From Acidobacteria bacterium UBA2161 (GTDB taxonomy: Bacteria > Acidobacteriota > Vicinamibacteria > Vicinamibacterales > UBA823): a DNA stretch of 64,000 bases. The position numbers and the translations under genes were made by a program. This document shows, in pieces, positions 2,438 to 16,846 of this stretch; the stretch's first letter is position 1; every line of letters starts with the position of its first letter. The notes beneath the pieces are model-generated. The model was given only the letters and a program-made list of their open reading frames with translations. It did not search any database and was not told the DNA's origin. The stretch spans positions 81,740 to 145,739 of the forward strand of contig DCWN01000043.1 in the NCBI GenBank assembly GCA_002328835.1, written 5' to 3'.

Positions 2438-3016
2438 GTGAAGAACGTCTGCGTCTTCTGCGGTTCGAGTGCCGGGAGCGATCCCGCGTTTCGCGCGGCG
2501 GCGTGCGAGATGGGCGAGGCCTTGGTTCGCCGCGGCATCGGCCTCGTCTACGGCGGCGCGCGCATCGGCATGATGGGTGCCATCGCCGACCGCGTGCTGG
2601 AACTCGAGGGCGAGGTTATTGGCGTCATCCCCCGGGCACTGGCCGAGAAGGAGGTCGCGCACGCCGGCCTCAGCGAGCTTCATATCGTCGGTTCGATGCA
2701 CGAGCGGAAGGCGCTACTGACCGATCGATCCGACGCGTTCATCGCGATGCCGGGCGGCTACGGCACGCTCGACGAACTCTGCGAGGCGTTGACCTGGGGA
2801 CAGCTGGGCATCCACGCCAAGCCGGTGGGGCTGCTGAGCACGGCAGGCTACTTCGACCGGCTGCTCGCGTTCCTGGACCACGCACGCAGCGAGGGCTTCC
2901 TGCAGCCGGAGCACCGCGCGATGGTCACGGTGAGCGCCGACCCGGACGAGCTGCTGAACGGCCTTTCGGCATACACGCCGCCCGGCGTCGAGAAGCTGAT
3001 CGGCCTGGAAGGTTGA
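2438..3016 (+). CDS. LOG-family cytokinin riboside 5'-monophosphate phosphoribohydrolase-like protein
   Basis: GTG at 2438 in frame of ORF 2165..3016. Motifs seen: VCVFCGSS, GGARIGMMG, PGGYGTLDE. About 190 aa, as is typical for the family. Confidence 0.85.
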   Translation: MKNVCVFCGSSAGSDPAFRAAACEMGEALVRRGIGLVYGGARIGMMGAIADRVLELEGEVIGVIPRALAEKEVAHAGLSELHIVGSMHERKALLTDRSDAFIAMPGGYGTLDELCEALTWGQLGIHAKPVGLLSTAGYFDRLLAFLDHARSEGFLQPEHRAMVTVSADPDELLNGLSAYTPPGVEKLIGLEG

Positions 3017-3037
3017 ACGCGTACGCCCAGGTGGTTC

Positions 3038-3225
3038 GGGCGCGTGGCTGGGTGTTGCGGTGGTCGAGCCCTTCTTAGGGAGGCGGCCGCCGGGGTCTTC
3101 TGACGCCGGGACGGACCCCGTGAATGCCGAACTGGTCTATCAATGGCTCACACCCCGGAGAGACCCCGCCTTGCCTGTTCGACGGCCGACGACGGGATCG
3201 ACGGCGCAATGCCCAGCCGCGCGTC
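3038..3225 (+). repeat. Repeat family A, copy 1: long imperfect hairpin / MITE-like intergenic element
   Basis: Left arm CTGGGTGTTGCGGTGGTCGAGCCC is complementary to right arm GGGATCGACGGCGCAATGCCCAG. It shares the internal blocks GGGAGGCGGCCGCC and GGCTCACACC with the copies at 9247 and 16621. Confidence 0.8.
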
Positions 3226-3239
3226 GGGAGAAGACGCCG

Positions 3240-4823
3240 CTAGTAGATCCGCACCCGGCTCTGTTCCCGCAGGAACTGCTGGACGTAGTAGGGCCCGCCG
3301 GCGCCGCGGCCCGACGAGCCGCTGGCCTTCCAGCCGCCGAACGGGTTGATGCCGGGCCACGCGCCGGTCGTGGCGCCGGCTTGCCGGTTGGCGTACACGA
3401 CGCCGGCCTCGATGCCGTCGAAGAACCTGGCGATCTCGTCGTCGTCCTCGGTGAAGATCCCCGCGGTCAGTCCGTACTCCGTGTCGTTCGCCAGCGCCAT
3501 CGCCTGATCGAACGAGCCGACCTCGCCCACGACGGTGATCGGCACGAACAGCTCGTCGACGAATAGCCGGTGGTCGTTCGGCAGGCCGTCGATCACGGTG
3601 GGTTCGAGGAAGTAGCCGTGCCGGAACGGTTCCTCCGTCATCCGGCGCCCGCCCGTGAGGATCCGCCCGCCATCGCGCTTGGCCTCCTCGATCGCCTGCT
3701 CGTAGATCTTGACGGCCGCCTCGTTGATGACCGGGCCCATCCAGACGTCGCGCTCGAGCGGATTGCCCACCTTGATCTGCTTCGTCTTCTCGACGAGCTG
3801 CTCGACGAACCGGTCGCGGACCTCGGAGGCGACGTACACCCTCGAGCATGCCGAGCACTTCTGCCCCTGGGCGCCGAAGGCTGAGCGCCAGACGCCCTCG
3901 CTGGCCCGGTCGAGATCGGCCGACGGCATGACGATCGCCGGATTCTTGCCGCCCATTTCGGTGATCACCGGCCGCGGCGCCGGCCGGGCGCCGTTCACCC
4001 GGAAGAGCATCATGCCGACTTCCTTCGAGCCGGTGAACACGATCCCATCGATGCCGGGGTTTTCGGCGATCTCCTGGCCGACCGTGGAGCCCGGGCCGGT
4101 CACGACGTTGAAGACGCCGGACGGCACACCGGCCTCGGCAATGATGTCGTAGAGCCGCACGCCGAGCCGCGGCGTGTCGGTGGCCGGCTTGAGCACGACG
4201 GTGTTGCCCGCGACCAGCGCGCCGCCCGCCGGCCCGGCGGCCAACGCCATCGGGAAGTTGAACGGCGAGATGACGGCCCAGACGCCGTGCGGCCGCATCA
4301 CCGACGTGTTCTCCTCGCTGTCACTCAGCTTGTCCATCGTCTGGCTGAAGCCGTCGTGCGCCTCCAGCTGATCGCAGTAGTAGGTCATGAAGTCGGCGGC
4401 CTCCTCGATGTCGCCGACGCATTCCAGCCTGTTCTTGCCGGTCTCGTAGCCCATCCACGCCGCCAGCTCCCAGCGGTGCGTCCGGATGCCGTCGCCGATC
4501 TTCCGGACAATGGCGACGCGCTCGGTCCACGGGCGCGCGCTCCAGGCCGGGGCAGCCGCGCGAGCGGCGCGGACGGCGTCGCGCACATGGTCGGCCGTGC
4601 CCGTCTGGAACCGCGCCAGGACGGTCCGCGTGTCGATCGGGCTCAAGTCGTCGAACTGCTCGGCCGACTCGATCGCCTCGCCGTCGATGTACATCGGATA
4701 CGTCTTGCCGAGTTGCGGCTTGATCTGTTCGATCGCGTCATCGATGCCCCGATGGAGCGTCTCCATCTGATCCGCACTCATCGTGGCGTAGGTGATCTTC
4801 ATTTCTGGCTTCGGATCGGTCAT
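3240..4823 (-). CDS. aldehyde dehydrogenase, probably L-glutamate gamma-semialdehyde (1-pyrroline-5-carboxylate) dehydrogenase
   Basis: ORF 3240..4838, with ATG at 4823 preceded by GGGAG. Motifs seen: FNFP, VITEMGGKNP, FGAQGQKCSACSR (catalytic Cys). Confidence 0.8.
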   Translation of the reverse strand: MTDPKPEMKITYATMSADQMETLHRGIDDAIEQIKPQLGKTYPMYIDGEAIESAEQFDDLSPIDTRTVLARFQTGTADHVRDAVRAARAAAPAWSARPWTERVAIVRKIGDGIRTHRWELAAWMGYETGKNRLECVGDIEEAADFMTYYCDQLEAHDGFSQTMDKLSDSEENTSVMRPHGVWAVISPFNFPMALAAGPAGGALVAGNTVVLKPATDTPRLGVRLYDIIAEAGVPSGVFNVVTGPGSTVGQEIAENPGIDGIVFTGSKEVGMMLFRVNGARPAPRPVITEMGGKNPAIVMPSADLDRASEGVWRSAFGAQGQKCSACSRVYVASEVRDRFVEQLVEKTKQIKVGNPLERDVWMGPVINEAAVKIYEQAIEEAKRDGGRILTGGRRMTEEPFRHGYFLEPTVIDGLPNDHRLFVDELFVPITVVGEVGSFDQAMALANDTEYGLTAGIFTEDDDEIARFFDGIEAGVVYANRQAGATTGAWPGINPFGGWKASGSSGRGAGGPYYVQQFLREQSRVRIY

Positions 4824-5519: not shown

Positions 5520-5684
5520 CGTTCGGCAGGCAGATGACCACACCGCGCACAGCGCGGTGTCGAGGCCCCGGCGCGGGGCGAGCGCCTGCGGCTGCTGCGA
5601 GGAGCGGAGCCGAGGAGCAGCGGCTCGTGGGGGTGGGGCCCCACGAGCACTGAGTGATGCAGTCCCCGCGCAGCGCACCCGGAA

Positions 5685-5708
5685 GTTCGGGGCGTAGCGC
5701 CGAGGTGA
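5685..5708 (+). repeat. Repeat family B, partial copy (3' module only): hairpin plus GAGGTGA ribosome-binding module
   Basis: GTTCGGGGCGTAGCGCCGAGGTGA is near-identical to 8477-8499 upstream of sdhB. Spacing from GAGG to the ATG is 5 nt in both. Confidence 0.7.
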
Positions 5709-5710
5709 AT

Positions 5711-6511
5711 ATGCCAACGATCGCGGCGCCGGTGCGCCGATTTGGAGAGACATCGCGATGCGACGCCTGGTGGGTGCAGCCCCTGGTCGTGGCGGCCGGG
5801 CTCGGCCTGTTCGTCGTCTACTCGACCTGGGCGGCGTTCCAGGGCGAGTACTACCACTCGGGGCCGTACCTCTCACCGTTCTACTCACCAGAGCTCTTCG
5901 GCGACTCGCCGCACGCCTGGTTCGGACCGAAGCCGGCCGTCTGGCCCGCCTGGCTGCCATGGTCGCCGGCCTTCCTCATTCTCGGCGTTCCAGTCGGGTT
6001 CCGTCTGACCTGCTACTACTACCGCGGTGCCTACTACAAGGCGTTCTGGGCCGATCCGCCCAATTGCGCCGTCGGTGAGCCGAGAGGGTCGTACCTCGGC
6101 GAACAGTCGTTCCCGCTGATCATCCAGAACGTCCACCGGTACTTCATGTACCTGGCGGTCGTGTTCATCGGCTTGCTGGCTCACGATGCGTGGAAGGGGC
6201 TCTGGTTCACCGATCCGGCGACCGGCGTCACGAGTTTCGGTGTCGGCGTCGGCAGTCTGGTTCTCATGATCAATGTCACGCTGCTCGGCGGCTACACGTT
6301 CGGCTGCCACTCACTGCGCCACCTGGTTGGCGGCCGGTCGGACCAGCTGTCGGCCGCCACGCCGCTGCGGCAGTCGACCTACGACTGCGTGAGCTGTCTG
6401 AACCGGCGGCACATGCTGTGGGCCTGGATGAGCCTGGTCTGGGTCGGCTTCACCGACGTGTACGTTCGGATGTGCGCGATGGGCATCTGGACCGACTTCC
6501 GGCTGCTGTGA
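5711..6511 (+). CDS. succinate dehydrogenase/fumarate reductase membrane anchor (single-subunit multi-TM cytochrome b type)
   Basis: ORF 5654..6511 trimmed to ATG 5711, after GAGGTGA. Multiple TM helices with conserved His (NVHRYF, LLAHDAW, CHSLRH). Sits directly upstream of sdhA/sdhB. The anchor-flavoprotein-FeS order matches actinobacterial Sdh1-type operons, by recollection. Confidence 0.65.
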   Translation: MPTIAAPVRRFGETSRCDAWWVQPLVVAAGLGLFVVYSTWAAFQGEYYHSGPYLSPFYSPELFGDSPHAWFGPKPAVWPAWLPWSPAFLILGVPVGFRLTCYYYRGAYYKAFWADPPNCAVGEPRGSYLGEQSFPLIIQNVHRYFMYLAVVFIGLLAHDAWKGLWFTDPATGVTSFGVGVGSLVLMINVTLLGGYTFGCHSLRHLVGGRSDQLSAATPLRQSTYDCVSCLNRRHMLWAWMSLVWVGFTDVYVRMCAMGIWTDFRLL

Positions 6512-8397: not shown

Positions 8398-8498
8398 GGG
8401 GATCAAGGCGCGCACGGCGCGCCTCGCGGGGACCGGAGTGGGGCACTCGGGGTCCCCGCGTAGGACCCCGCGGGGGTTCGGGGCGTAGCCCCGAGGTG
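8398..8498 (+). repeat. Repeat family B, full copy: multi-hairpin GC-rich element in the sdhA-sdhB spacer
   Basis: Hairpins: GGCGCGC-ACG-GCGCGCC (8407-8423); CGCGGGGACC...GGTCCCCGCG (8425-8460); ACCCC-GCG-GGGGT; CGGGGC-GTA-GCCCCG (8479-8493). An inverted near-identical copy lies at 31168-31263. Confidence 0.8.
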
Positions 8499-8501
8499 AT
8501 C

Positions 8502-9239
8502 ATGAAATCGGCAACCTTCAGGATCTGGCGCGGCAACGCCGAGGGCGGCGAGTTCAAGGACTACTCGACCGAGATCAGCGAAGGCATGGTCGTGCTGGAC
8601 GCCGTTCTGCAGATTCAGGCGGCGGAGGCGAACGACCTCGCGGTGCGCTGGAACTGCAAGGCGGGGAAGTGCGGCTCGTGCTCGGCCGAAGTGAACGGCA
8701 ACCCGCGCCTGATGTGCATGACCCGCATGGATACGGTGCCGACCGATCAGCCGATCACGATCGAGCCGATGCAGACCTTCCCGTCGATCAGGGATCTCGT
8801 GACCGACGTGTCGTGGAACTTCAAGGTCAAGCAGGGCATCCCGCCGTTCACGCCGCGGCCGGCCGACGCGCCGGACGGCACCTGGCGGATGCAGCAGCGC
8901 GACGTGAACCGGGTGCAGGAGTTCCGGAAGTGCATCGAGTGCTTCCTGTGCCAGGACGTCTGCCACGTGCTACGGGATCATCGGAAGCACGGCGAGTTCA
9001 TCGGGCCGCGCTTCCTGGTCTACGCGGCGGCGCTGGAGATGCACCCGCTGGACGTGGCGGACCGCGTCGAGGCACTGGCCGAGGCCGACGGGATCGGCTA
9101 CTGCAACATCACGAAGTGCTGCACGAAGGTTTGCCCCGAGGAGATCACGATCACCGACAACGCGCTCATCCCGCTCAAGGAACGCGTCGTCGACCGCCTC
9201 TACGACCCGATCTCCAAGCTGCTGCGCCTGTTTCGCTGA
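8502..9239 (+). CDS. sdhB: succinate dehydrogenase/fumarate reductase iron-sulfur subunit
   Basis: Cys clusters CKAGKCGSCSAEVNG, CIECFLCQDVC and CNITKCCTKVCP. ATG at 8502, 5 nt after GAGG; the track start at 8496 is an in-frame GTG. Confidence 0.9.
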   Translation: MKSATFRIWRGNAEGGEFKDYSTEISEGMVVLDAVLQIQAAEANDLAVRWNCKAGKCGSCSAEVNGNPRLMCMTRMDTVPTDQPITIEPMQTFPSIRDLVTDVSWNFKVKQGIPPFTPRPADAPDGTWRMQQRDVNRVQEFRKCIECFLCQDVCHVLRDHRKHGEFIGPRFLVYAAALEMHPLDVADRVEALAEADGIGYCNITKCCTKVCPEEITITDNALIPLKERVVDRLYDPISKLLRLFR

Positions 9240-9246
9240 TCGTCCT

Positions 9247-9440
9247 CGCGCGAGGTTGGGCGTTGCGGTAGTCGATCCCTCTTGTTGGGAGGCGGCCGCT
9301 CGGATCTTCTTTCGGGAGAATCCTCTCCGAGAGCGCCCGGGCGGTCGATCTCGGGCTCACACCGTGGAAGCATCTTGCTTCGCTTGACCGTCGGCCGCCG
9401 ACGGGATCGACGGCGCAACGCCCAATCTCGAGCCACGAGG
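9247..9440 (+). repeat. Repeat family A, copy 2
   Basis: Shares GCGCGAGGTTGGGCGTTGCGGTAGTCGATCCC ... GGGAGGCGGCCGC ... GGCTCACACC ... GGGATCGACGGCGCAACGCCCAA with the other copies, in the same orientation. Confidence 0.8.
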
Positions 9441-16620: not shown

Positions 16621-16846
16621 GGGCGCGAGGGTGGGTGTTGCGCTGGTCGATCCCTTCTTAGGGAGGCGGCCGCCTGGATGGTCGACATGCGAGGAGGGGC
16701 TTCGCGCTCGCTCAGTCGGTTGAGCAGTGGCTCACACCTTAGAAGCACTCTGAGACCGACTGTTCGACGGACGCCGACGGGATCGACGGCGCAACACCCA
16801 GCCTCGTGACGAGAAACCGGCTCGGCGCAATGCCCAGCGTCGTGCC
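16621..16846 (+). repeat. Repeat family A, copy 3 (with a partial duplication of the right end)
   Basis: GGGCGCGAGGGTGGGTGTTGCGCTGGTCGATCCC ... GGGAGGCGGCCGCC ... GGCTCACACC ... GGGATCGACGGCGCAACACCCAGCCTCGTG. A second right-end fragment, CGGCGCAATGCCCAGCGTCGTGCCC, lies at about 16822-16846. Confidence 0.8.

Follow-up and report, generated by a model that had tools for sequence, protein, structure and literature searches.

The window analysed in this study, a stretch of 64,000 nucleotides, corresponds to positions 81740 to 145739 of contig C27 of the source genome (G000; 3.63 Mb, 67% GC, 44 contigs). It contains three full copies of a palindromic intergenic repeat of approximately 190 bp, hereafter family A, at the places where a sequence-only reading of the same DNA had put three long-hairpin repeats (Table 1). 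As that reading claimed, the left arm is the reverse complement of the right arm in all three copies, the interior islands GGGAGGCGGCCGC and GGCTCACACC are invariant or almost so among them, and each copy fills a gap between convergent genes. Pfam agrees with the neighbors that had been named for all three pairs; the name of the gene that converges on copy 2 is tentative, since its Peptidase_MA_2 match of 28.9 bits is below the Pfam cut-off of 32.4 bits. Two hairpin-plus-Shine-Dalgarno motifs of another repeat family, D14, are located directly before start codons, in a region that comprises the SdhB-like gene and the DNA upstream of it. A related motif precedes the gene at C31:51460 of G000, and the motif may be a translation leader.

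Table 1. Family-A copies, neighboring genes, and other repeats in the window (positions are those of the window; R1, covariance model of family A)
Feature	Position	Strand	Details
LOG-family gene, stop codon	3014-3016		Pfam LOG/Lysine_decarbox
Family-A copy 1	3039-3225	+	187 nt; R1 179.7 bits
Copy 1, left arm	3039-3071	+	GGCGCGTGGCTGGGTGTTGCGGTGGTCGAGCCC; pairs with 3194-3225
Copy 1, right arm	3194-3225	+	GGGATCGACGGCGCAATGCCCAGCCGCGCGTC
Aldehyde dehydrogenase gene, stop codon	3240-3242	-	Pfam Aldedh
Hairpin-plus-Shine-Dalgarno motif (D14)	5680-5713		GGTTCGGGGCGTAGCSCCGAGGTGA..ATG
Hairpin-plus-Shine-Dalgarno motif (D14)	8471-8504		GGTTCGGGGCGTAGCSCCGAGGTGA..ATG
SdhB-like iron-sulfur subunit gene, stop codon	9237-9239		Pfam Fer2_3
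Family-A copy 2	9247-9434	+	R1 180.5 bits
Peptidase_MA_2 gene (tentative)		-	
Histidine phosphatase gene, stop codon	16578-16580		Pfam His_Phos_1
Family-A copy 3	16622-16810	+	R1 179.4 bits
Solo partial right arm	16824-16846	+	GGCGCAATGCCCAGCGTCGTGCC; 13 nt past copy 3
Nitroreductase gene, stop codon	16856-16858	-	Pfam Nitroreductase

The consensus of family A starts with (CTT)GGCGCGAGGCTGGGCGTTGCGGTAGTCGATCCC and ends with GGGATCGACGGCGCAATGCCCAGYCTCGCGCC, and the inner arm sequences are GGGCGTTGCGGTAGTCGATCCC and GGGATCGACGGCGCAATGCCC. The terminal stem runs on through GGCGGCC/GGCCGCC and comprises approximately 36 pairs in three helices, while the arms, 33 to 45 bp in length, are not self-complementary. 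When 22 copies were compared with 500 shuffles and with slid controls, the terminal stem was found to be 98.0% paired with nine pairs changed on both sides, which none of the 500 shuffles reached, and pairing fell to 30-48% in the slid controls. The compensatory changes in the arms that the sequence-only reading proposed to look for are indeed present. The outer helix, which pairs columns 5-24 with 181-200, contains eight of the nine doubly changed pairs, and the inner helices are invariant.

In the interior of approximately 100 nt, averaged pair probabilities give no consensus helix, and the single-sequence MFE folds disagree among copies. The hand-built interior helices P2-P4 (UCGACCG/CGGUCGA, ACG-loop-CGU, and a stem around GGCUCACA) were rejected: they are 74.4% paired versus 73.1% in shuffles, their pairing and double-change measures are reached by 57-110 of 500 shuffles, and their pair-type and covariation measures are reached by 13-14 of 500. 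Family A has no coding capacity. A small ORF behind the Shine-Dalgarno-like GGGAGG was considered and dropped, as only about half of the copies have a suitably spaced AUG or GUG (judged by eye), and an IHF-like site around ATCAATGGCTCA was rejected because it is unconserved across copies. No sigma-70-like promoter was seen at copy 1, and no intrinsic terminator (hairpin and U tract) was found on either strand of positions 2950-3300, a result that leaves U-tract-independent termination possible.

These observations bear on the idea that family A is a family of free-standing structured non-coding RNA genes that share a conserved fold and act in trans, a possibility that we consider highly improbable. 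The long stable fold of copy 1 (z = -3.35 on the + strand), the covariation in the terminal stem, and the conserved single-stranded islands, including GGGAGG, are all consistent with it. However, the interior has no supported helix, no promoter-like site was seen at copy 1, and Rfam gave no match at either the gathering or the E-value threshold, in agreement with the earlier failure to match the element to any named RNA family. Moreover, the element is confined to one species cluster, its copies are lost or inverted at orthologous sites, and eight of the nine doubly changed pairs are in the outer stem, where they may be explained by arm-to-arm conversion at the DNA level. Neither covariation beyond the terminal stem nor a conserved position and orientation at orthologous loci, by which a structured RNA would be recognized, was observed; free-standing RNA genes are already largely refuted, and the structured RNA proposed by the sequence-only reading is not supported.

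Conservation along the element is far from uniform. The mean pairwise identity is 0.91 and 0.93 in the two inner arms, 0.88 in the GGGAGGCGGCCGCC island, and 0.84 in UGGCUCACAC, whereas it is 0.53 and 0.52 in the two variable stretches of the interior; i.e., the inner arms and islands are 6 to 7 times better conserved than the interior, in copies that diverge independently. Judged from the aligned copies, such unevenness is not expected of dead copies that simply decay neutrally, and selection or concerted evolution would be needed. The two strands also differ. On the + strand, the stem mismatches include 47 cells of the G.U type (14 pairs) versus 9 cells of the A.C type (5 pairs), and this strand gives the more stable of the two folds in 20 of the 22 copies under RNA parameters (mean difference of 10 kcal/mol) and in 21 of 22 under DNA parameters. 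The excess of G.U-type mismatches and the better folding hint at a strand-specific single-stranded form of family A; the asymmetry is partly inherited from the master copy and is thus only suggestive.

A search of G000 with nhmmer and R1 revealed 20 full-length copies of 192-196 nt and approximately 10 more truncated copies or solo arms, so the family extends far beyond the three copies in the window and far beyond chance. The twentieth copy (C38:130900-131090) is partly N-masked in the assembly and is complete on a Tara Oceans contig (L137:7882-8074), where it is the copy nearest to the family consensus. Two full copies are preceded, a few bases upstream, by a partial duplicate of their own left arm (C27:31690-31720 and C7:44740-44765), in parallel with the duplicate right arm of copy 3. 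The "same orientation always" of the sequence-only reading holds within the window and fails genome-wide, where 10 copies are on the + strand and 10 are on the - strand in contig coordinates; relative to the local GC skew, the 20 copies also divide 10:10, which indicates no replication-strand bias. The pairwise identity among the copies has a mean of 0.725 and never exceeds 0.85, and no recent pair (>90% identical) was found; the star-like pattern of similarity suggests one old burst followed by independent divergence.

Family A has a narrow range. R1 matches 2 of 101 related genomes, namely, G000 itself and, weakly, G001, a same-genus relative ("Acidobacteria bacterium NP133") that is 99% complete. 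A 20-mer scan of 185,579 species genomes led to only two relatives, G001 and G101, whose flanking DNA is approximately 90% identical to that of G000. G101 (JASLOV01 contigs; incomplete assembly) contains two full copies, one weaker full-length match, and one mini copy, and a partial left-arm duplicate corresponding to that at C27:31690 is also present in it. Although G101 is labelled "Dehalococcoidia bacterium Arabian11_MAG_43", its contigs L056, L063, and L064 are mostly 85-93% identical to acidobacterial G000 across kilobases, and by this similarity the MAG is either mislabelled or holds mis-binned acidobacterial contigs. Among 401 Acidobacteriota genomes including G000, a 22-nt arm pattern (up to three mismatches) is multi-copy in G000 only. 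In a metagenome scan, only Tara Oceans contigs from the same organism matched, and blastn of family A against a plasmid collection gave no match.

The flanks of 19 copies were searched for in G001 and G101, and the junctions were read. G001 has a full copy at none of 13 comparable sites; arm remnants are found at seven and others are empty, within flanks that are mostly 77-97% identical to those of G000. At the copy 1 site, the two genes abut in G001, and the extra DNA of G000, which consists of 26 nt, the element, and 13 nt, provides the TGA stop codon of the LOG gene. The C27:56259 site has only 17 unaligned nt in G001 and no arm remnant, the copy 2 site retains only a 16-nt left-arm fragment, and the C27:31721 and C7:116277 sites hold short remnants. 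The second partial right end that had been noticed at copy 3 is real: at this site, G001 has a solo right arm only, which is orthologous to 16824-16846, and G101 has an inverted, truncated copy fused to the solo right arm. The solo right arm of G001 at the C7:44766 site carries the same rare CACGTT variant as the copy in G000, the left arm of which compensates for it, and this copy is therefore older than the split of the two genomes and was deleted in G001. At the C13 site, G001 has a right arm beside other repeats, and at the C29 site it has both arms, inverted, around a different interior that consists of two small GTAG-tagged hairpins. The whole copy at the C27:31721 site is inverted in G101 after an identical 30-nt flank, and the copy at C31:160495 is the only one there that is co-oriented with its counterpart in G000. 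The latter pair is truly orthologous, given the rare GTCAGGGTGT variant common to both genomes, and approximately half of its outer-stem positions differ on both arms between the genomes, while the arms stay complementary. Of four informative orthologous sites, three thus have the element in inverted orientation, and at one of these (copy 3 in G101) only a truncated copy is present. Read from these junctions, the turnover of family A takes place at the DNA level, by loss, inversion, and arm-to-arm homogenization.

Several repeat families cluster in the same gaps as family A. A palindromic repeat of approximately 140 nt, repeat B (GGGGCGAGGGCGCCGGGCTCAGAC...GGCGCCCTCATCCCC), is located directly upstream of four family-A copies of G000 (C26:6097, C13:20974, C7:32835, and C25:15915) in the same relative orientation, and at C10:49572-49674 of G001 it occupies the site of the C2:39945 family-A copy of G000. 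A further repeat of approximately 90 nt adjoins the C31:51152 copy of G000 and has at least eight copies in G001 and several in G101.

With a crude GC3-based gene finder, supplemented by a check of the junction stop codons by hand, 18 of the 20 copies were placed in convergent gaps, compared with 16% of all intergenic gaps of G000 called by the same gene finder. This placement raises the question of a domesticated regulatory module, in which family A would serve convergent gene pairs as a selected bidirectional terminator, insulator, or mRNA 3'-end stabilizer and the invariant inner arms and islands would form the putative binding site of a host protein. The better conservation of these parts in independently diverging copies, the length held at 192-196 nt, the wobble pairs and stability that favor the + strand, and the retention of 20 full copies in G000 versus none at the 13 sites examined in G001 are all in accordance with such a module. 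On the other hand, no U tract or consensus terminator was seen at copy 1, the orientation flips between orthologous sites, the same gene pairs lack the element in G001, and small GC-rich hairpins already adjoin some copies; we therefore regard a module of this type as unlikely.

The mode of mobilization was examined at the copies and in the databases. Exact direct repeats of at least 3 bp did not exceed the null at the family-A copies, nor was there excess similarity with mismatches for k = 3-10; since the copies are old, short target-site duplications could have eroded. In G000, a pair of arms never encloses a stretch longer than the element of approximately 190 nt. The cognate transposase for which the sequence-only reading suggested a search did not come to light, as no IS with matching ends was found in G000, the two relatives, 400 other Acidobacteriota genomes, or the plasmid collection; MAGs are often devoid of IS copies. 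Because no transposase, target-site duplication, or recent copy pair was found, it is the old presence and absence of copies that points to mobility.

G000 has one REP-associated tyrosine transposase (RAYT; C33:16348-16899, equivalent to L142:1384-1935), which matches Pfam Y1_Tnp and NCBIfam NF047646 (111 bits; cut-off of 80). A REPIN-like population mobilized by this enzyme, with the long hairpin as the single-stranded DNA substrate, would fit several features of family A: no RAYT or Y1 transposase was detected in G001, which has no full copy; the lack of a target-site duplication is expected of HUH enzymes; approximately half of the copies carry GTAG at the internal loop of the left arm (GTGG or CTGG in the others); and the + strand is favored under DNA folding parameters too. 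Nevertheless, this origin is very unlikely. The RAYT flanks show no similarity to the family-A consensus or model and contain no inverted repeats, no REPs, and no sequence with copies elsewhere in G000, and the arms of family A are not themselves short GTAG-tagged palindromes. In the three genomes compared, G000 has the RAYT and 20 copies, G001 has remnants and no RAYT, and G101 has at least three copies with no RAYT or Y1 transposase detected in its incomplete assembly. An orientation bias relative to the GC skew is also absent.

The RAYT island has a lower GC content (61%) and is not syntenic in G001. The nearest homologue of the RAYT (65% identical) has classical GTAG REPs on its flanks, together with a sequence resembling a small hairpin repeat of this genus, GTAGGGCRGTCCTTCAGGGC. 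The GTAG-tagged REP family GTAGGGCRGTCCTTCAGGGC(YGCC) is represented in this genus by 18 copies in G001 (e.g., C5:123821-123879, C12:104759, C32:114213, C32:143179, and C14:14668) and 3 in G000 (including C18:89631 and C21:2732), with none in G101, and one G001 copy is located 34 nt past the end of synteny with the RAYT locus of G000. Given the lack of family-A arms at the RAYT, the GTAG REPs of its homologue, and the GTAGGGCRGTCCTTCAGGGC copy at the synteny break, the enzyme probably serves the GTAGGGCRGTCCTTCAGGGC REPs and not family A. Five G001 copies of this REP family occupy four sites orthologous to family-A copies.

Among known systems, the ERIC/YPAL sequences, which are long imperfect palindromes of 127-167 bp in enterobacteria, resemble family A in many respects. 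Both are non-coding, combine better-conserved with variable parts, occur as tens of dispersed intergenic copies in either orientation in transcribed regions near gene ends, include truncated and internally rearranged variants, and are expected to form RNA hairpins in read-through transcripts. Unlike ERIC/YPAL, family A is from another phylum and limited to one species cluster, shows no sequence similarity to them, is far more tightly restricted to convergent gaps (18 of 20), and has no detected target-site duplication. Correia/NEMIS and RUP are bacterial MITEs. They share with family A the terminal inverted repeats, small size, lack of an ORF, intergenic location, and presence or absence between relatives, and they can give neighbors stop codons or hairpins, as with the TGA of the LOG gene here. 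Of the hallmarks of MITEs, which are non-autonomous derivatives of DDE insertion sequences, family A has the terminal inverted repeats, the small size, the absence of an ORF, and the dispersed copies, whereas, in contrast to Correia/NEMIS and RUP, neither a target-site duplication nor a cognate IS with matching ends was found for it.

REPINs are head-to-head REP dimers associated with RAYT (Bertels & Rainey 2011, PMC3116915; Di Nocera et al. 2013, PMC3733652); REP, RAYT, TIRYT, and TIRtron are used here as defined in the latter study. Like family A, REPINs form a long hairpin from two inverted arms, lack a target-site duplication, and also occur as solo arms and in clusters, and REPIN/RAYT systems are patchy among close relatives, in genomes with a single RAYT gene. 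Family A differs in its arms of 33-45 nt, which are not self-palindromic, in its 100-nt interior, in a GTAG that is internal and found in only about half of the copies, and in a RAYT without flanking arms. A REP is a palindrome of 20-40 nt with GTAG at one end, which the arms are not, and the RAYT of G000 is not flanked by family A in the way that a RAYT is by its own repeats. In Acidobacteria, moderately abundant long inverted repeats, the TIR families, have been described beside TIRYT tyrosine transposases; they occur as singles, dimers, or clusters, and it was proposed that they are spread by Y1 transposases (PMC3733652). Family A likewise has long inverted repeats, moderate abundance, and a similar arrangement, but the Y1 gene of G000 has no flanking TIRs at all, and the GGGGWSAS motif was not seen in the family-A arms when inspected by eye.

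Taken together, family A is best explained, with a probability of approximately 0.7, as a lineage-specific group of palindromic repeats that are non-coding, intergenic, and of one kind with MITEs, REPINs, and ERIC/YPAL. It adds a previously uncatalogued family to a well-known class of selfish or semi-domesticated repeats and is not a structured RNA. It is also neither an ordinary MITE, since it has no target-site duplication and no partner IS, nor a REPIN, since its arms are not GTAG palindromes and the RAYT is not flanked by them. Of the choice offered by the sequence-only reading, namely, a MITE or a structured RNA or terminator module, what stands is a mobile or recombining DNA repeat, as seen from the 20 dispersed non-coding copies, the solo arms, and the absence, truncation, and inversion at orthologous sites; the ordinary MITE does not stand, and the same is true of the structured RNA.

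We infer the following history for these palindromic repeats. Family A would have expanded once, in an old burst, in the ancestor of a marine Vicinamibacterales-type acidobacterium and its closest relatives, and the copies would have survived almost only where they were harmless, in the promoter-free gaps of convergent genes. Later they would have disappeared, shrunk to solo arms, been invaded by other repeats, or flipped, and recombination between the inverted arms of the element itself is the likely cause of this turnover. Template switching in quasipalindromes is an established source of mutations. In the nearly perfect outer 13 bp of family A, such switching or arm-to-arm recombination would flip the element and create "compensatory" changes, and it could keep these 13 bp complementary without selection on an RNA. 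Read-through from either flanking gene would produce an RNA that folds into an interrupted hairpin of approximately 45 bp (about -105 kcal/mol), which would act as a 3'-end barrier or as an RNase III target. In such read-through transcripts, family A may have a passive role as a hairpin or terminator.

The 6- to 7-fold better conservation of the arms and islands, together with the loss of full copies in G001 versus their retention in G000, leaves some room for the host to maintain family A as a barrier between convergent genes, either protein-bound or at the RNA level, although we consider such a role improbable. In its most specific form, which is also improbable, the copies would not be dead transposon relics; a protein would bind the inner arms and the GGGAGGCGGCCGCC and UGGCUCACAC islands, and the + strand hairpin would form a bidirectional barrier to transcription or RNA decay that prevents the overlap of convergent transcripts, maintained in this lineage and lost in its sister. 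If a protein were found to bind the arms, or if the arms turned out to terminate transcription in both directions, family A would be a clean case of repeat domestication. As a palindromic repeat family, it aids annotation by accounting for long "structured" intergenic hairpins and for some contig breaks, and it can serve as a strain marker in an uncultured marine acidobacterium. With its near-exclusive location in convergent gaps, its arms and islands that outconserve the interior, and all stages of loss, inversion, and replacement in the sister genomes, including replacement by a GTAG REP family at the same sites, family A is a reasonable small model for the persistence of palindromic repeats.
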